IMG/VR virus record: IMGVR_UViG_2767802108_000001
Location: 25,135-89,134 of that record
Length of the DNA: 64,000 nt
DNA from: a virus
Taxonomy: Duplodnaviria; Caudoviricetes
Reading direction: 5' to 3' (one strand)
Shown here: positions 31,458 through 40,815 of the stretch, one piece after another
Layout of the letters: each line of letters begins with the position of its first letter
Position numbering within the stretch: position 1 is the stretch's first letter
Made by a program: the position numbers and the translations under genes
Notes under the pieces: model-generated
The model's input: the letters and a program-made list of their open reading frames with translations, nothing else
Told to the model about the DNA's origin: nothing
The model's database searches: none

Positions 31458-31502
31458 GCATGATGGTGCCCGCCTGCTTTCCTCAGGCGGGCACCATCAT
31501 GC
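31458..31502. terminator. Bidirectional terminator between convergent genes
   Basis: Perfect 19-bp stem GCATGATGGTGCCCGCCTG / CAGGCGGGCACCATCATGC. Confidence 0.85.
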
Positions 31503-33158: not shown

Positions 33159-33362
33159 CGAACGGTCCCGAGACCATCACCCTCTACGAAGCCCTGCAAA
33201 CGGGGCTGGCCCCGTGCAGTACGTGCAAGCCGAAGAGGCCCTAGTGCGGCCGACCTCGCAGTGAGGTGAGGCAATAGATCCTCTGGCTCCAGTTAATGTT
33301 CCTGATCTCGGGCTGGCGTGAGCGGGGGGAACGTCCCGGCTAGACCGTGGCACGGTATGGAC

Positions 33363-34067
33363 ATGCCCCCGAAGTCGAGTACCGCAGGCCAGGAGCAGGC
33401 GCTCAAGGAAGTACGCGCGGCCGCGAAGAAGTACCTCGCCGCCGATCTGCCGCCGCTGAAGCGTGCCGCCCGCCAGGCCCTCCGCGAAGCCGTTGCCCAG
33501 GCAGCGCAGGCCGGCGTCAAACAGGTTGAGGTCGCCAGGGCCTCTGGACTGAGCAAGGCGCAGGTCTCCCGTCTCTCCCGTGGTGCCACCAGTGGCCGCA
33601 CCCCGCTGCCGCCAGCCGAGTACCTGGTACGCAGCCTTCCGACGGATCCAATCGTCACCCGCTACCAGGAAGGCGCTACCGCCGTCGACCTCGGTCGGGA
33701 GTACGGGTGCAGCAGCACCACCATCCTCACCATCCTGAGGCGCTGCCAAGTCCAGGTCCGGAAGGGCCGCGAGATCGAACTGCCCGTGTCCGATGCCGAC
33801 CTGGTGCGCCGGTACGTGGACGAGCGGATGCAGATCCAGGACATTGCTGCCGAGCTCGGGGTGAAGCCGAACCTGATCTCCCGGCGCCTGTCGGCGGCCG
33901 GCGTGCGCATCCCTGTGGGGCATCGTCGGATGGATCTCCCGGATGCGGAGATCGTGCGACGGTACCGGGCGGGGGAGTCGGCGAACCGGATCGCGAAGTC
34001 TTATGGCGTCAGCCATGTGACCGTGATGCGTCGGGTGCGGGAGGATCGCGCCAGACGACGCGCATAA
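33363..34067 (+). CDS. Multi-HTH DNA-binding protein
   Basis: Four HTH-like units (VARASGLS, LGREYGCS, IAAELGVK, IAKSYGVS); leaderless after GGAAC-N18-CACGGT. Confidence 0.8.
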   Translation: MPPKSSTAGQEQALKEVRAAAKKYLAADLPPLKRAARQALREAVAQAAQAGVKQVEVARASGLSKAQVSRLSRGATSGRTPLPPAEYLVRSLPTDPIVTRYQEGATAVDLGREYGCSSTTILTILRRCQVQVRKGREIELPVSDADLVRRYVDERMQIQDIAAELGVKPNLISRRLSAAGVRIPVGHRRMDLPDAEIVRRYRAGESANRIAKSYGVSHVTVMRRVREDRARRRA

Positions 34068-34084
34068 CGTGTGTTATGGATGAT
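34057..34084. other. dif/Xer-like recombination core site (11-6-11)
   Basis: GACGCGCATAA-CGTGTG-TTATGGATGAT vs E. coli dif GGTGCGCATAA-TGTATA-TTATGTTAAAT; directly upstream of the recombinase operon. Confidence 0.65.
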
Positions 34085-34102
34085 CGACGGTAGACTCAGA
34101 TC

Positions 34103-34342
34103 ATGACGGCTGAAGATGACGAGGCAACCGGACGCCTACTCGTAGCCGCCGCGCTGCACGACGGAATGCAGCACGATGCAGCTACAGCAGAAGCGGCACA
34201 GTGGCTCGCCAAGGACTGGGAACGCACTGGCCGCATCGAAGGTTCGATGTACGCAGTCGTCATGGGCTATGCACTCAAGCACGCCACCCCCGACGAACAA
34301 GAAGCGCTGCGCCGCTGGTTCACGGAGTTGACGGCACGATGA
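34103..34342 (+). CDS. Hypothetical protein, first gene of the recombinase operon
   Basis: TAGACT -10 at 34091 followed by a leaderless ATG; ATGA overlap with the recombinase. Confidence 0.65.
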   Translation: MTAEDDEATGRLLVAAALHDGMQHDAATAEAAQWLAKDWERTGRIEGSMYAVVMGYALKHATPDEQEALRRWFTELTAR

Positions 34343-35442
34343 CCCAACACACCGTCACCGCCCGGCCCCGCGCCGAACTCGCCACACCTGGCAGCGCGGA
34401 AGAGGCCCTGTACTGGCTGCGCGACACCCTCGGCACCGTCGCACGCCGCGACCCACGCACCCGCCGCCTCGGCCCACGCCGCTACCGCCTCGAACTCCTT
34501 GCCGAAGTCTGCGACCGCGACACCTTCCTCCTCATCACCTCCTGGCTTGGCTCCGAAGCCGTCCCCGCGGTCACGTCCAAGCAGGCCTACGCCGACGACG
34601 TCTGTCTCTGGGCCGACGTCGCCCGGGAGTTGGGCGGCCACGAACGCTTCCACGTCGGCGCCATCACGCCCGGCATCATCGAGACCTGGACCAAGACACA
34701 GAAGGCCCAGGGCAAGGCGCCCCGCACTATCAACCGACGCCTGTCCGTCCTCACCGCCCTCACCCAGTACGCGGCATGGAAGACGAAGGAGACCATCGCC
34801 TCACCGGTCACCAAATACGACCGGCCACGCGTCGATCCCCGCGACGAGACCACCGCCACCCCCATCCTCGAAGTCCCAGAGTTCCAGGCCGTCGTCAACG
34901 CCGCCCAAACCCCGCGCCAGGCCCTCGTGCCCGTCCTCATCTACACCCTCGCCGGCCGCGTCACCGAGTGCTGCACCGCCCAGCTAGAGCACCTTAAGAA
35001 GACGGGCGGGAAGCGCCGACTGGACCTGTCCCGCAAAGGCGGGAAGGGCCGCGTCTGGCCGCTCCCAAACCGGCTGTGCGACCTCATCGACGTGGCCACC
35101 GCTGGCCGCGATAGCGGGACGCTGCTCCTGACCGACGATGACCGTCCCATGGACCGTCACGCCGTCGACCGCCTCCTCAACCGCCTTGGCGAGGAAGCCG
35201 GAGTTCTCCCCGGCCGGGACCTCACACCGCACGTCCTGCGTGCCTCCAAGCTCACCCACATGCACGACGCCGGCCATCCAGTAGAGGAGATTCAGGAGTA
35301 CGCCGACCACGCCGCTATCGAGACGACGCTGCGGTACATCCGACGCCGCGACGACGCCGCCCGCAAGGCCAAGCACGCTGCGGCCGCAGCCGCCGTCTAC
35401 GACCACTTGGTAGACCGGTTCGTCAACAGGGGAGGAATATGA
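34339..35442 (+). CDS. Tyrosine recombinase (XerC/D-like)
   Basis: Catalytic set intact: GRVTE (R), RKGGK (K), HVLR, ADH and LRY. Confidence 0.9.
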   Translation: MTQHTVTARPRAELATPGSAEEALYWLRDTLGTVARRDPRTRRLGPRRYRLELLAEVCDRDTFLLITSWLGSEAVPAVTSKQAYADDVCLWADVARELGGHERFHVGAITPGIIETWTKTQKAQGKAPRTINRRLSVLTALTQYAAWKTKETIASPVTKYDRPRVDPRDETTATPILEVPEFQAVVNAAQTPRQALVPVLIYTLAGRVTECCTAQLEHLKKTGGKRRLDLSRKGGKGRVWPLPNRLCDLIDVATAGRDSGTLLLTDDDRPMDRHAVDRLLNRLGEEAGVLPGRDLTPHVLRASKLTHMHDAGHPVEEIQEYADHAAIETTLRYIRRRDDAARKAKHAAAAAAVYDHLVDRFVNRGGI

Positions 35443-35897
35443 AGACGCCAGCCTGTTGGGCATGGCCAGCAGATCGGCCGGGAGAAGACGACGTCACTCG
35501 GAGATTCTGGGAAGGCATCGACACTACCGGCTACAGTGCCAGCGTTCTTGATCTCTTGGAGGAGGTAGCCGCCGCCCAGTGTGACGACGAGGGGACGCTC
35601 CGGACCTGGCAGGCCGGCCGATGTGCCATCTGCGGGGAGACAGACCGGACCATGGTCTGCGATCACGACCACGAAACCGGATTGGTACGCGGCTGGCTGT
35701 GCGTCTCATGCAACACCCGAGAAGGTGTTGCCGTAGGCGTACCTGGAACGGTCATGGCGGCATATCGTCAGCGGCCGCCCACCGCCATTCTTGGGCTGAC
35801 GATTCGGTACCGCGATCCCTTCGCGCGCCGGTATGCAGATCCGGAACCGGTCCGTAAGGATGGCTGGGACGACAGCTCCAGCGCGGACCTCACGTAG
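35439..35897 (+). CDS. Endonuclease VII domain protein
   Basis: CAICG...DHDHETGLVRGWLCVSCN. Confidence 0.85.
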   Translation: MKTPACWAWPADRPGEDDVTRRFWEGIDTTGYSASVLDLLEEVAAAQCDDEGTLRTWQAGRCAICGETDRTMVCDHDHETGLVRGWLCVSCNTREGVAVGVPGTVMAAYRQRPPTAILGLTIRYRDPFARRYADPEPVRKDGWDDSSSADLT

Positions 35898-36114
35898 CGG
35901 TAGGCCTGCGGGTCGGCTCCTGCCCCCACCGGATCTTCTCGGCGGTTTCCTTCTCGTCCACCAGGAGCCGGCCGTCTCCGAAGCAGTCGTCGCAGCGGCC
36001 CCAGCCGAGAGTGGGCTCGCCGTCCTCGTCGTCGGGCGGCTGGATGACTTGCACGGAGCCTTCACCGTCGCATTCGTCGCACGTGAACTCGTACTCGCCC
36101 TCGACCAGCGTCAT
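35890..36114 (-). CDS. Small DnaJ-type zinc-finger protein
   Basis: CDECDGEG and CDDCFGDG motifs. Confidence 0.7.
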   Translation of the reverse strand: MTLVEGEYEFTCDECDGEGSVQVIQPPDDEDGEPTLGWGRCDDCFGDGRLLVDEKETAEKIRWGQEPTRRPTAT

Positions 36115-36152
36115 CGTGGCGCCCCTCCCCGGTGTGTGGGCTGTGATCCTAC

Positions 36153-37004
36153 TCAGCCTGCGGGCGTGTCCCAGAATCCGGTGTGGGCGATGACGTCTGC
36201 GGTGACGGGTGGGGTGCGTTGGGCGAGGAGGGGGTTGGTGGCGCAGATCTGCTGGATGAGCATGTTGGGGTAGCGGGAGGCAATGGGCCGGCCGCCTTGC
36301 CCGAGGATCAGCGCGTGGACGCCGTCGGCGGGGCGGGGTCGTTTGGGCAGGTAGTGGTGGAGGGCGGCTGCGGTGAGGGGTTCGAGGGTGTGCTTTGTGC
36401 CGACGTTCTCGAAGTCGTCGGGGGTGCGGACGGTCCAGGTGCCTTCGGCGGTGTTCTCGTACAGGTGTCGCATGTCGAGGCGGACGATTTCGCCGGGGCG
36501 CAGGCCTTCCAGGAGGAGGTAGCCGATCAGGCGGTCGCGGAGGTAGTGGCGGGCTTGGTCGGGGCCCCAGCCTCCGAGGCAGGTGAAGAAGGTGACGCGT
36601 TCCATGGGGGTGAGGCGTCGGGGTGGTTCGGCGTCGCGGTCGACTCCGGAGCGCAGCAGGTTGAGTTCGGGGAGCTGGCGGATGACGCCGGTGTCGCGGG
36701 CGGCGGTGTAGTAGCCGGTGAGTGCGGTGATGCGTCGGTCGTGGGATTTCGCGACGTCGGGGTGGTGGTGGGCGAGCCAGGCGAGGGTGTCGGGTCCGTC
36801 GAGGGGCCGGCCGTCGAGGGCCCAGGCGAGGTGCCGGTCCTGTGCCCAGCGGGCCACGTTCTCGAGGCCGAAGTCGTAGGGGTTGACGCGACAGTCGTGG
36901 CACCAGTCGAGCCAGGAGGTGACCTCGCGGCGGTACTCGATGGCGGTGGAGGGGCGGAGGGTGCCGCCGGTGAGCCAGGTGTCGAGGAGTGCGCGGGGTT
37001 CCAT
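36153..37004 (-). CDS. Tyrosine-recombinase-like protein lacking the catalytic C-terminus
   Basis: Core-binding domain and RDRL...GLRPGEIVRL are present, but HxxR reads DVIAH and the ORF ends 9 aa later with no H/Y. Confidence 0.75.
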   Translation of the reverse strand: MEPRALLDTWLTGGTLRPSTAIEYRREVTSWLDWCHDCRVNPYDFGLENVARWAQDRHLAWALDGRPLDGPDTLAWLAHHHPDVAKSHDRRITALTGYYTAARDTGVIRQLPELNLLRSGVDRDAEPPRRLTPMERVTFFTCLGGWGPDQARHYLRDRLIGYLLLEGLRPGEIVRLDMRHLYENTAEGTWTVRTPDDFENVGTKHTLEPLTAAALHHYLPKRPRPADGVHALILGQGGRPIASRYPNMLIQQICATNPLLAQRTPPVTADVIAHTGFWDTPAG

Positions 37005-37045
37005 GCCCCTTAGTGTGCCCGTACCACGCCTCAGATCAAGATCTA

Positions 37046-37158
37046 TACAAAACCTCGGGACCCTCCACCCACTTGGTGGCGGCTTGGGTATGTGGCGCGG
37101 TGCGGGGCGGAGATCGCGCGCTGCTTCTCCTGGTGGGTGGGGTGGCCGAGGTTTTGTA
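37046..37158. repeat. Spaced inverted repeat upstream of the inactive recombinase gene
   Basis: TACAAAACCTCGG...CCACCCAC (37046-37072) and GTGGGTGG...CCGAGGTTTTGTA (37133-37158). Confidence 0.75.
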
Positions 37159-37286
37159 CAGGTTGCCGATCTTGGGTTCGGGGCGGGCCTGCGGACCTTC
37201 TCCGAGGCTGCACGAATCACGCTACGGGCTGGACGGACAACCGTTCCCCCTGCACAACGGCGGCGTGTCAGCGTTCGGACGTTGGC

Positions 37287-37478
37287 CTACAGGCCGGGTA
37301 TCGGCTCCTGATCCACGTCGTGCCGGTCGTAGCCGTGACGCGGTTCGGGATCGCATTCCGGGCCGAGGCGCCGGCTGCGCGAGACCTCGTCCGTCAACTC
37401 TCGGTGGCATTCGCGGCACCAGATGCGGGTACGGTCGCCGGGGTCGATGAGCAGCGTCTCCTGCCGGTCACGGGCCAT
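37287..37478 (-). CDS. Small zinc-binding protein (DUF6011-like)
   Basis: CRECHRELTD..SR...LGPEC. Confidence 0.7.
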   Translation of the reverse strand: MARDRQETLLIDPGDRTRIWCRECHRELTDEVSRSRRLGPECDPEPRHGYDRHDVDQEPIPGL

Positions 37479-37495
37479 GACTTCAGTTTCCTTAC

Positions 37496-38413
37496 TCAGT
37501 CTTGGAGTGATCCCCAGCGGGCGCGGCAGGGCGAGCGACGGCAGCGGTCAAGGCTGGGCACCGTGAACATAGGGGAGAGCCCGCCTGCCCCTGATTCAAG
37601 CGCCTTGTCCTGGATGCAAGCGGCTACAGCAGCCCTTCGGCTGGACCAGGTCCCAGTGACGGCTGCGTGCACGAGGGAACGTCGGTTGGATCGCACGATA
37701 CGACCGCCGAGGAGTGCTCCGTCTTGTGTGAGCGTTCGGACAGTCTGGTGCACCACGGTCTCCGCGAGGTAGGAGTTCAGCTCCACACACTGGCCTATGG
37801 GCGGCGCTGCGCTGCCAAGCGAAGGGATGCTCGACGTGGCACGCAACTCGTTGATGTAAGCGATCAGGTCAGGCGTCGGATGGAACCACTCGCGGCTCCG
37901 TGCTGATGCGCGGGCATGCTTGAACCGGCGCTGCAAATGGCGTTCACGGTCGATACCGCCAGGCTCAGTTGCCAGAGCTTCTGCATGCAGGGCGGTCATC
38001 CTCAGGCGAAGGTTCGTCGTCTTGCCGATCTTGATGAGCTTTTCCCGGCGGGCGAAGTAGACGAGTGGGGCATGTCGTCCGTACTGCGGATCCGGTTGGA
38101 GTCTGTCCCCGTACTTGCGGGTCCAGGTCGAGACGGACTTGGTCAGGTCTTCCTCCAGTTCGCGGACCTTGGCTGCTCCGGCGGTATGGGCCAGCAGAGT
38201 CGCCGCTTCTTCCTCGTGGTCGGCGCAGAAGCGCAGTGGCTCCTTTGTGGTGGCAAGCATGCGGCAGTCGTCGAAGGCACAGATTCGAGTGGTGACGGAT
38301 ACCGCGATGACCTGGACGCGGGCGCCGCATCCACAGCGGAAGGCGTTGCGGCCGGCGCGTCCGTACGGGTTCATGGATCTGCTGCATCCGCATCTGACGG
38401 TGAACTGCTGCAT
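37496..38413 (-). CDS. GIY-YIG/T5orf172-domain protein with Cys-rich N-terminus
   Basis: VYF...IKIGKT.N...R...E..L..RF...REWF. Confidence 0.75.
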   Translation of the reverse strand: MQQFTVRCGCSRSMNPYGRAGRNAFRCGCGARVQVIAVSVTTRICAFDDCRMLATTKEPLRFCADHEEEAATLLAHTAGAAKVRELEEDLTKSVSTWTRKYGDRLQPDPQYGRHAPLVYFARREKLIKIGKTTNLRLRMTALHAEALATEPGGIDRERHLQRRFKHARASARSREWFHPTPDLIAYINELRATSSIPSLGSAAPPIGQCVELNSYLAETVVHQTVRTLTQDGALLGGRIVRSNRRSLVHAAVTGTWSSRRAAVAACIQDKALESGAGGLSPMFTVPSLDRCRRSPCRARWGSLQD

Positions 38414-39900: not shown

Positions 39901-39987
39901 CATTTGGGCGGGGCCGGCCTGGACGCCGACAACCGGGCCGGATACCCGCCGGATCTCATCACTGCACAACCTCATAGGAGAGACCTC

Positions 39988-40815
39988 ATGGCGCAAGCCG
40001 TTGAGGCCCCCGCCGGGACGATGGCGGAGGGCCCCACCTCGCACACCCAAAACCAGGCTGCACTCTTCTCCCCGTACCAGCTGCGGATGCTCCACGGCGG
40101 TATCCACGCCAACCGGGTCCGCATGCTCCGCGGCATGGCCCACCTCGAAGCGTGGGACGTCCGCCGCCAGCTCATCCGTGTCTTCGGGTTCGGCGGGTTC
40201 TCCATCGACACCGTCAGTCTGGACCTGGTCTCCGAGCGGGAGACAAAGAACGGTGAGCGGTCGAAGTGGACCATCGTGTACCGAGCGCAGGTTCGTCTGA
40301 CGCTGTACACCCCCGACGGTCGGAAGATCACGCACTTCGAGGACGCGGCTGCGGGTGACGCCATCAACCAGCCGTCCATCGGTGACGCGCACGACCTGGC
40401 GATGAAGACGGCGGTGTCGCAGGCGCTGAAGCGGTGCGCGGTGAACCTCGGGGACCAGTTCGGTCTGTCGCTGTACAACAACGGGTCGTCGGATCCGGTG
40501 GTGCACTTCTCGGCTGCGCATCCGCCGCAGGAGTGGAAGCCGGTGGAGCCGCCCGCGCCGGAGCCGGAGGATCCGCCGGTGCAGCCGGAGCCGCAGGCTG
40601 CGAGCGTGGTCTCGGAGGCTGTCGCGGAGCCGACGGCGGCTCAGGACCGGGACTACCTGCACGAGGCGCACGAGGCGTCGGATGCGGCCACAGTGCGCCG
40701 TATCTGGCAGGCGGCGCGGGCGGACGGTGCAGTCGAGGAGTACCTAGCGCAGATCGCCGAGGTGGGTAAGGGGAAGGCCGCGCAGGGCGGCGACACGGAG
40801 AGGAGCGCCGCATGA
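39988..40815 (+). CDS. Rad52/Rad22-family (Sak-like) single-strand annealing protein
   Basis: HLEAWDVRRQLIRVFGFGG and A.KTAVSQALKRCAVNLGDQFGLSLY motifs. Confidence 0.9.
   Translation: MAQAVEAPAGTMAEGPTSHTQNQAALFSPYQLRMLHGGIHANRVRMLRGMAHLEAWDVRRQLIRVFGFGGFSIDTVSLDLVSERETKNGERSKWTIVYRAQVRLTLYTPDGRKITHFEDAAAGDAINQPSIGDAHDLAMKTAVSQALKRCAVNLGDQFGLSLYNNGSSDPVVHFSAAHPPQEWKPVEPPAPEPEDPPVQPEPQAASVVSEAVAEPTAAQDRDYLHEAHEASDAATVRRIWQAARADGAVEEYLAQIAEVGKGKAAQGGDTERSAA

Follow-up and report, generated by a model that had tools for sequence, protein, structure and literature searches.

The window examined here, a stretch of 64,000 nucleotides that corresponds to bases 25135-89134 of contig C24 in a 7.65-Mb assembly, carries a gene for a truncated, catalytically dead protein of the tyrosine recombinase fold, which we call D (36153-37004, minus strand, 283 amino acids (aa)). 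The gene is linked to an imperfect palindrome upstream of its start codon and is independent of two genes that face it, those of the active recombinase R (34339-35442, plus strand) and of an endonuclease VII (EndoVII)-domain nuclease (35439-35897, plus strand). We propose, with moderate confidence, that D is a domesticated dead recombinase and regulates its own operon by binding to this palindrome. The original prediction for this DNA had merged D, R and EndoVII into one recombination system; judged by the related loci that we compared, the locus would comprise two separate modules and not a machine of three parts.

An AlphaFold model of D based on 28 homologues (pLDDT 88.9) displays the two-domain fold of tyrosine recombinases, with a core-binding (CB) and a catalytic (CAT) domain. 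Foldseek relates the model to Cre (E-value 1.8e-6) and, more weakly, to XerA, XerD, XerH and Tn1549 Int, while VIA-align superimposes it on XerH with a Z score of 17.4 over 250 residues (root-mean-square deviation (rmsd) 6.0), on Cre with a Z score of about 14 and on the catalytic domain of XerD with a Z score of 13.2 over 143 residues (rmsd 3.0). At the sequence level, D matches positions 20-118 of the 172-position Pfam Phage_integrase profile with an E-value of 0.046 and 13.9 bits (cut-off 27.1) and phrog_1 integrase with 6.6e-5, and the labels it receives from NCBIfam and the ESM Atlas are those of a generic integrase only. The first catalytic arginine (Arg I) is retained as R169 in the motif GLRPGE. 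The box that reads HxLRHT in active enzymes is changed to ADVIAHT (H to D, R to A), and the chain stops 9 residues later; a box of this type followed by an early stop is present in 28/28 close relatives and in 10 remote ones. In the structural alignments the end of the D model coincides with Cre residue 303 and XerH residue 323, and D ends before the positions of Cre W315/Y324 and XerH H335/Y344 (residue numbers after Table 3 of PMC10516654). Four of the six catalytic positions and the C-terminus are absent from D, and no displaced C-terminal piece of a recombinase was found 3′ of its stop codon. Because the HxxR motif, the C-terminal His/Trp and the Tyr nucleophile have all been lost, D is predicted to be incapable of cutting or rejoining DNA. 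The description of D as a convergent recombinase fold that kept Arg I, lost HxxR and ends before the His/Tyr positions, with which our analysis started, is borne out by the model and the alignments.

The truncated length is conserved throughout the family. A word-indexed search returned 260 homologues at E ≤ 0.001, and among the 120 matches listed all are 281-305 aa long and 59-100% identical to D, with open frames, many of them on contigs of about 90 kb. In 28/28 aligned D proteins the C-terminal end is VTADxIAHTG(F/Y)WD, and the alignment contains 77 invariant columns, those of the terminal motif included, so that homologues end at the same point, as had been anticipated for a gene that is not decaying. 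An exhaustive search of representative sequences found only 30 clusters; ten remote relatives (263-302 aa, 25-36% identity) stop just after a (T)(A/P)D..(I/V)A.(S/T) box. The GC content of third codon positions (GC3) is 0.87-0.95 in D open reading frames (ORFs) called from the ATG of D. Our argument for selection on D is based on the open frames and the conserved length and not on the ratio of non-synonymous to synonymous substitution rates (dN/dS). By maximum likelihood this ratio is 0.04-0.13 in four of the five unsaturated pairs and 0.91 in the remaining one, with another four pairs saturated (dS 47-85), and by the NG86 method its median is 0.85 over 210 pairs, with a dS of 0.2-0.3 at 50% protein identity, an estimate that is distorted by a GC3 of about 0.9. 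D is a conserved gene and not a recent pseudogene.

Two explanations for the shortness of D were considered and rejected. D is not the product of a frameshift, as a separate gene begins 39 bases past its stop codon and the listed homologues are of like length. Neither is D one half of a split recombinase whose Tyr helix resides on the 74-aa protein encoded downstream, as that protein belongs to the CxxCxGxG Zn-ribbon type and most loci do not encode it. A search of proteins of 497-2000 aa yielded no longer or fused forms of D, which is weak evidence; one fusion of 458 aa (see below) came from the representative search.

Comparisons between loci were made on 25 loci from species genomes, a further 11 taken from records of close plasmids and from phage ZL12, and 35 from IMG/VR, with flanks of 3-6 kb. 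A full D is present in 59 of these loci, which encode 51 unique D proteins. Partial or broken copies occur in L010, L011, L017, L025, L026 and L027; the partial copy in L010 adjoins a Mutator-family transposase, that in L025 is in pieces, and L027 has a D fragment that lies on a contig of 752 kb.

The palindrome upstream of D spans about 120 base pairs (bp) (37043-37161). Its arms, at 37043-37072 and 37133-37161, enclose a C-rich centre of 60-87 bp, and its perfect core, TACAAAACCTCGG, is located at 37046-37058 and 37146-37158. On C24 the arm motif has only these two copies at up to 2 mismatches, and the one further match at 3 mismatches is background (0-2 such matches on five other contigs of similar size). 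An inverted repeat at about −155 and −50 from the D ATG is found in 19 of the 20 loci that have an intact upstream region (L021 is without it) and in 4/4 further plasmid loci. Of the 33 IMG/VR loci, which include duplicates of earlier ones, 30 have the repeat, the exceptions being L061, L062 and L070. The arms differ between lineages, yet stay complementary, and changes have occurred on both sides in 13 of 17 arm pairs.

The same architecture is seen far outside the close relatives of D. We examined eight remote D-like genes, seven at 24-28% identity and one (L083) at 27.6% over 81% of D, that are found on diverse Streptomycetaceae plasmids of 35-233 kb, some of which are linear. Four of the eight (L034, L036, L080 and L081) are preceded by a palindrome with arms of 14-18 bp that are 90-99 bp apart and end 13-18 bases before the start codon. 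These arms are unrelated or only partly related to those of D, and their inverted-repeat scores are 14-18 compared to a maximum of 10-12 in 30 shuffles. As the genes on either side are variable, D and its palindrome are the conserved unit.

R is a catalytically complete Xer-like tyrosine recombinase of 367 aa. Its probable start is the ATG at 34339 in a frame that is open from a GTG at 34201 (34201-35442, plus strand). It matches Pfam Phage_integrase (PF00589) with an E-value of 2.8e-19 and 70 bits (cut-off 27.1), Phage_int_SAM_1 (PF02899) with 2.6e-5, and the NCBIfam XerA, XerC and XerD models with 8e-22 to 1.4e-18, all of the latter far below the model cut-offs. The catalytic set R207, K233/K236, H298-x-x-R301, H324 and Y333, which lines up with the residues of active relatives and is invariant in 4/4 aligned relatives, agrees with the completeness originally ascribed to this enzyme. 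Upstream of the R operon is a dif-like 11-6-11 site, GACGCGCATAA CGTGTG TTATGGATGAT (34057-34102), with two inverted 11-bp arms of unequal sequence and a 6-bp spacer. The pattern CATAA-N6-TTATG occurs at a single place in the 7.65-Mb assembly, where it is matched on both strands owing to its symmetry. A dif-like site is found at the equivalent place upstream of R in 6 further loci: L018 (near 9965) and L030/L031 (near 8309), which share the R cluster of the window, have a site with the same left arm, whereas the arms differ in L002 (near 7658), L004 (near 9260) and L015 (near 2686), the R of which falls into another cluster. R has a site of its own, likely 34057-34102, the arms of which change with the R lineage. 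R and this site would make up an ordinary self-contained module of the Xer/Cre type, with the same layout as the single-recombinase modules XerH-difH, XerS-difSL and P1 Cre of the Xer/dif and Cre/loxP systems. The adjacency of recombinase gene and site in these systems is also mirrored by D and the site upstream of its own gene. Unlike these recombinases, however, D is unable to catalyse strand exchange, and its arms are 87-99 bp apart as opposed to 6-8 bp.

The terminal 99 bases of C24 are identical at both ends, which makes it a circle of about 89,035 bp, and its GC content is 68.5% compared to 72.2% for the whole assembly. The annotated relatives closest to it, among them pSLE1 and pSAM1, are Streptomyces plasmids that are likewise circular and measure 86-93 kb; the D homologue of pSAM1 is SAM23877_RS36575. 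The published description of pSLE1 reports high homology and synteny with the plasmid-phage pZL12 and states that pSLE1 has two putative integrase genes (PMC4487206). The 35 relatives of the locus in IMG/VR reside on viral contigs, many of which are 85-97 kb long. Considering (i) the circular form of C24, (ii) its plasmid relatives, (iii) the synteny of pSLE1 and pZL12, and (iv) the viral contigs of IMG/VR, C24 is a phage-plasmid of the pZL12/pSLE1/pSAM1 kind. The R module would most likely serve the resolution of multimers of this circular phage-plasmid and possibly its integration.

D is not tied to any particular R. Recombinases were sought in the flanks with a hidden Markov model (HMM) built from 20 downstream recombinases, of which 16 match Pfam Phage_integrase at E ≤ 0.001 (11 above the cut-off) and 4 were known from an earlier HMM only, and hits were required to cover more than 200 profile positions. 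A convergent tyrosine recombinase lies 3′ of D in 40 of the 51 unique loci, which is a lower bound, given the short flanks and the removal by the filter of R fragments at the ends of loci L070 and L077. At 40% identity R falls into 7 lineages and D into 1, and the pairwise identities of D and R are uncorrelated (Spearman 0.04, 780 pairs). In L023 and L048 the D proteins are 96% identical and the R proteins 28%, while the window and L018 share 53% identity in D and about 92% in R. Furthermore, in L033 (6516-7346; CP108822.1, a S. chartreusis plasmid) the R slot is occupied by a serine recombinase (Resolvase, 1.4e-17). Since seven R lineages and a serine recombinase stand against one D lineage, the recombinase slot is a feature of the backbone, and its occupant is freely exchanged.

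The EndoVII gene is an even less regular companion. Its start overlaps the R stop codon by 4 bases (ATGA), in accord with the coupling initially described, and its product matches Pfam Endonuclease_7 (PF02945) with an E-value of 1.8e-15 and 57 bits (cut-off 23.6) as well as PHROG endonuclease VII families. The translation contains CAICGE...CDHDHETG...CVSCN, that is, the CxxC...DHDH...CxxCN motifs, and so shares both the domain and the Cys/His/Asp/Asn motifs of the T4 endonuclease VII family. A local HMM search found no other such gene on C24. Unlike a fixed component, the gene is not conserved at the R-D locus: co-occurrence of D, R and EndoVII had been set beforehand as the criterion for a common system, and of the 51 unique D loci only 3 (the window, L013 and L019) have EndoVII directly after R, and 7 have it anywhere in the flank. 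L018 encodes an R about 91% identical to that of the window and has no EndoVII gene; L013 has an EndoVII 78% identical to that of the window next to an R without a tblastn match to the window's R at 1e-5. In phage ZL12 the recombinase gp036 is followed by the EndoVII-like gp035, and no D was found there (tblastn, 1e-3). The EndoVII gene is an accessory cassette, an occasional passenger, which may function in junction resolution or may be a mobile homing-type nuclease gene.

The pairing of D with the palindrome is proposed because their linkage is conserved, the arms covary, and the same architecture recurs at 24-28% protein identity. Between the palindrome and the D ATG lies a short conserved stretch (37005-37042, minus strand) in which a putative promoter, TTGATC ... 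CACTAA, can be read by eye; in the aligned upstream regions the equivalent positions again hold TTGATC and a box like (C/G)A(C/T)(A/T)A(A/T). This stretch may be a candidate promoter for a nearly leaderless D mRNA. D would have kept the two-domain C-clamp that wraps DNA, as well as Arg I, and one D molecule would clamp each of the inverted arms, the centres of which are about 100 bp apart. As the proximal arm abuts the apparent D promoter, D binding would control D and the variable cargo genes behind it in the plasmid state. We infer both the binding of the arms and its effect. In the same scheme the R module of C24 would have picked up the EndoVII gene.

Such control would be comparable to that exerted by the integrase-fold repressors MrpR (YopR) and SroF of SPbeta phages, which provide a precedent for D as a putative repressor. 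These proteins are described as monomeric, as having lost recombination, and as wrapping a 26-bp box (PMC10516654; bioRxiv 10.1101/2025.11.27.690993). Like D, they have the recombinase fold's CB and CAT domains without recombinase function, and they are presented in these reports as sequence-specific DNA binders of temperate phages. The D model aligns to SroF (9rd5) with a Z score of 11.3 and to MrpR (8a0a) with 10.2 (VIA-align), below the values for XerH (17.4) and Cre (about 14). The likeness is one of fold: neither protein turned up in the D sequence searches, which did not include a direct profile comparison. MrpR and SroF are, by the same reports, full length (about 320 aa) with the last helices and the Tyr kept, whereas the chain of D stops after the HxxR-equivalent helix, and MrpR is reported to bind an element repeated across the phage genome, whereas the presumed site of D is single with two inverted arms. 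They also belong to a different host phylum, and D occurs on plasmids without annotated phage genes as well. A second parallel is TnsF of the Tn7-like element Tn6022, a transposon target selector described as having an inactivated tyrosine recombinase domain that is reused to recognise a DNA site; the same paper names, as partners of the active TnsF relatives, Tsy, a second recombinase, a helix-turn-helix (HTH) protein and a GIY-YIG nuclease that is dispensable (PMC10293859). Unlike D, TnsF is described there with N-terminal zinc fingers and tandem CB domains and as acting with Tn7 transposition proteins on comM. Tn7 genes are absent from the annotated features and family matches of the loci examined, to which no search aimed at Tn7 genes was added. 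No publication on the D family was found in the literature searched, most subscription journals being outside that search.

Several observations weigh against D being the repressor of its own operon. With two arm copies per replicon, D is not a genome-wide master repressor like MrpR; no operator copies of the kind a master repressor would use were found elsewhere on C24. A scan for consensus sigma-70 promoters gave 0 promoter-like sites in 35800-37600, and 0 terminators. The palindrome is missing at four of the eight remote D-like loci, adjacency alone would make the linkage of gene and site track the phylogeny, and dN/dS gives no stable answer for D across methods. In addition, the centre of the palindrome is conserved across remote relatives, in both orientations, which a plain operator model leaves unexplained, and a D-like/EndoVII fusion and the replication and partition genes beside some D-like genes, both described below, hint at DNA processing or plasmid maintenance and not at regulation.

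The centre between the arms, 72-94 bp long, is polar. In class A, which includes the window, a motif of the type CCACCCAC-C/TAGG-A/G-GAAGTCGCGCGCGC adjoins the distal arm; in class B the reverse complement of the centre motif adjoins the proximal arm. Among 23 loci there are 15 A, 7 B and 1 tie, and among 30 IMG/VR loci 9 A, 15 B and 6 unclear cases. Class B appears at ≥ 3 places on the D tree, which is partly unresolved. As a reverse complement, the centre of L024 matches that of L001 over about 50 bases, and that of L034, the locus of the fusion, can be aligned with class A. Several centres of class B fail to be clean reverse complements from end to end, with C about as frequent as G in them. 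The centre has been inverted more than once. The orientation does not flip within 5 groups of identical or near-identical elements, and no contig of opposite orientation exists in the assembly of the window (G000), in G001 or in G002. Because near-identical elements agree and alternative contigs are absent, there is no sign of a fast switch. The locus resembles invertible switches (fimS with FimB/FimE; invertons) in that inverted repeats of 11-23 bp surround a short segment found in two orientations and recombinase-family genes adjoin it. Unlike in such switches, no heterogeneity was found in the assemblies or among near-identical elements, a consensus scan found no promoter-like site inside the centre, and the protein conserved beside the repeats is the dead D, while R varies or is absent.

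The orientation of the centre bears on the alternative that D and the palindrome are a DNA-processing unit, in which D would recognise the arms or a cruciform and recruit an EndoVII-type nuclease for cleavage, inversion or flip-flop, or in which the site would mark a maintenance function near replication and partition genes. The two orientations, the recurrence of class B on the D tree, the match of L024 to L001 and the perfect complementarity in which the arms are kept all fit this idea. So do the genes found at some loci. The 458-aa protein P0142 (L034, 4001-5377; NZ_CP109498.1) consists of a truncated D-like domain followed by an Endonuclease_7 domain (Pfam E-value 1e-5, 25.8 bits, cut-off 23.6), and its gene is preceded by a pair of 18-bp inverted repeats that are 93 bp apart; in L024 an EndoVII ORF lies 3′ of D on the same strand; a remote D-like gene directly precedes a ParA gene on a 35-kb plasmid (L083, 2959-5957; NZ_CP109525.1); and another stands between a RepL2 gene and a partition gene on a linear plasmid of 128 kb (L082; CP146838.1). 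Two assemblies break at the palindrome, L008 with a contig end inside the centre and L015 opened at its edge. The break in L015, however, is merely the point at which a circular contig (G001:C22; 89,333 bp, 95-base overlap) was opened, and EndoVII in 7 of 51 flanks is close to what chance would give for one gene per 90-kb replicon, an estimate in which the gene number comes from C24 only. Also, among the D neighbours (33 upstream and 25 downstream) nuclease genes are not enriched beside the palindrome. Together with the lack of flips within the five near-identical groups, the lack of alternative contigs in G000 and G001, and class B centres that are not full-length reverse complements of class A, this makes a DNA-processing unit an unlikely explanation, to which we would still give some weight. 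The fusion keeps alive the notion that D targets a nuclease to the palindrome or to a cruciform; it lends no support to junction resolution for R.

A bolder version of this notion, which we find improbable, is that the D family and its palindromes form a module, so far undescribed, that is widespread on the plasmids and phage-plasmids of Streptomycetaceae. In this module the dead, truncated recombinase would clamp the arms (centres about 100-115 bp apart) or a cruciform and direct an EndoVII-type nuclease, separate or fused, to it; the outcome would be site-specific cleavage, or a flip-flop inversion of the centre, in the service of plasmid maintenance, replication or phage-plasmid switching. 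If this were true, a former recombinase scaffold would have become the subunit that targets a structure-specific nuclease.

About equally doubtful is a role of the palindrome as RNA with no direct link to D, either as a hairpin in the D leader (an attenuator or RNase III site) or as a small RNA. Both strands fold far better than shuffled sequences (−56.8 kcal/mol, z −4.8, for the D sense strand; −72.5 kcal/mol, z −5.3, for the other strand), and 13 of 17 arm pairs covary. On the other hand, the 11 inner arm pairs contain no G-U in 19 sequences, and in the outer pairs mismatches of the G-U type are about as frequent as those of the A-C type, so that neither strand is favoured, a pattern that suggests symmetry at the level of DNA rather than an RNA helix. 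Rfam gives no match at E ≤ 1 in 36800-37500, the centre occurs in either orientation relative to D, and the like architecture with unrelated arms at 24-28% D identity fits a protein-site pair.

The recombination system envisaged originally is very unlikely, being largely refuted by its own co-occurrence criterion. In it, D would be the dead subunit of an R-D heteromer at the asymmetric dif-like site, R would swap only one pair of strands, and the Holliday junction so formed would be left to EndoVII for resolution. Such a system would account for the convergent recombinase gene in 40 of 51 loci, the unequal arms of the dif-like site, the EndoVII gene directly after R in the window, L013, L019 and phage ZL12, and the natural D-like/EndoVII fusion on another plasmid. 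It finds no support in an R that is swapped between seven lineages and once for a serine recombinase while D stays one lineage, in identities of D and R that vary independently overall and in the pairs L023/L048 and window/L018, or in an EndoVII gene so rare that R is without an adjoining one in 48 of 51 loci, is without it in L018, has it beside a dissimilar R in L013 and has it without D in ZL12. The assignment of D to one of the dif-like arms likewise falls away, as D has a conserved DNA element of its own with a sequence unrelated to either arm, and a fully catalytic R needs no helper in principle. Finally, the idea that a duplicated integrase left D behind as a pseudogene in decay, as its missing catalytic positions and C-terminus might suggest, has practically no probability in view of the 260 homologues, the uniform length and open frames of the 120 listed, the invariant columns that reach the last motif, the end point shared by remote relatives, the high GC3, and the low maximum-likelihood dN/dS in four of five unsaturated pairs.

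The gap between D and the recombinase (35897-36153 in the window and its equivalents) is a hot spot for cargo, containing Zn-ribbon, PIN-domain (3/25), EndoVII, SpoIIE-like, PRiA4_ORF3-like or HTH genes, or nothing. Family matches among the genes downstream of D are PIN_4 in 3 of 25, DnaJ-CXXCXGXG in 2 of 25 and three other families once each. In the window this cargo includes a Zn-ribbon-like gene (35890-36114, minus strand) that starts 39 bases after the D stop codon and encodes 74 aa with two CxxCxGxG motifs (Pfam DnaJ_CXXCXGXG, E-value 0.002, below the cut-off). By tblastn, this variable gene is directly 3′ of D in L001, L002, L008 and L015; in L026 it lies 550 bases past a partial D, and in L006 at another place and on the opposite strand. 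On the other side of D, the only family found among the upstream genes is DUF6011 (4/33), represented in the window by a gene in the direction of D (37287-37478, minus strand; PF19474, 2.4e-8). Beyond it, in the same direction, is a T5orf172/MUG113-like gene (37496-38200, minus strand) with weak Pfam matches to MUG113 (0.0012) and T5orf172 (0.0025), both below the cut-off, and a match to phrog_8604 (5.8e-14).

Upstream of the R operon, a gene for a 249-aa protein with multiple HTH matches (33318-34067, plus strand) hits Pfam HTH_23 (1.5e-12), HTH_7 (6.7e-12) and other HTH families. A small ORF of 79 aa (34103-34342, plus strand) overlaps the start of R and has no family match; it is 90% identical in L018, and DUF6221 is annotated at the equivalent position in pSLE1 and pSAM1. 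Farther away, directly 3′ of a dCTP deaminase gene and between convergent genes, a perfect inverted repeat of 19 bp with a loop of 7 bases (31458-31502) probably serves as a terminator in both directions. Exchange between elements also affects the recombination gene in the divergent early operon (39904-40815 in the window and equivalent positions), which is Rad52-like in the window (Pfam 1.1e-18), Bet in pSAM1 and ERF in NBC_01483. GC skew tracks gene direction and is uninformative on an origin or terminus at the palindrome.

The use of dead recombinase folds for DNA binding has emerged recently as a theme, the examples being MrpR/SroF of Bacillus phages and TnsF of Tn7-like transposons; the D family would be an independent case from actinomycete plasmids and phage-plasmids. 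Features of its own are the clean C-terminal truncation, the natural EndoVII fusion, and a single dedicated palindrome of fixed spacing that persists down to 24-28% protein identity. On pSLE1-type plasmids, the protein annotated as a ‘second integrase’ cannot integrate anything, and the recombinase slot of these phage-plasmids is a swap site, which bears on how resolution or integration modules are exchanged. Although such elements are difficult to work with, the D locus offers a protein-site pair that is simple and open to test.

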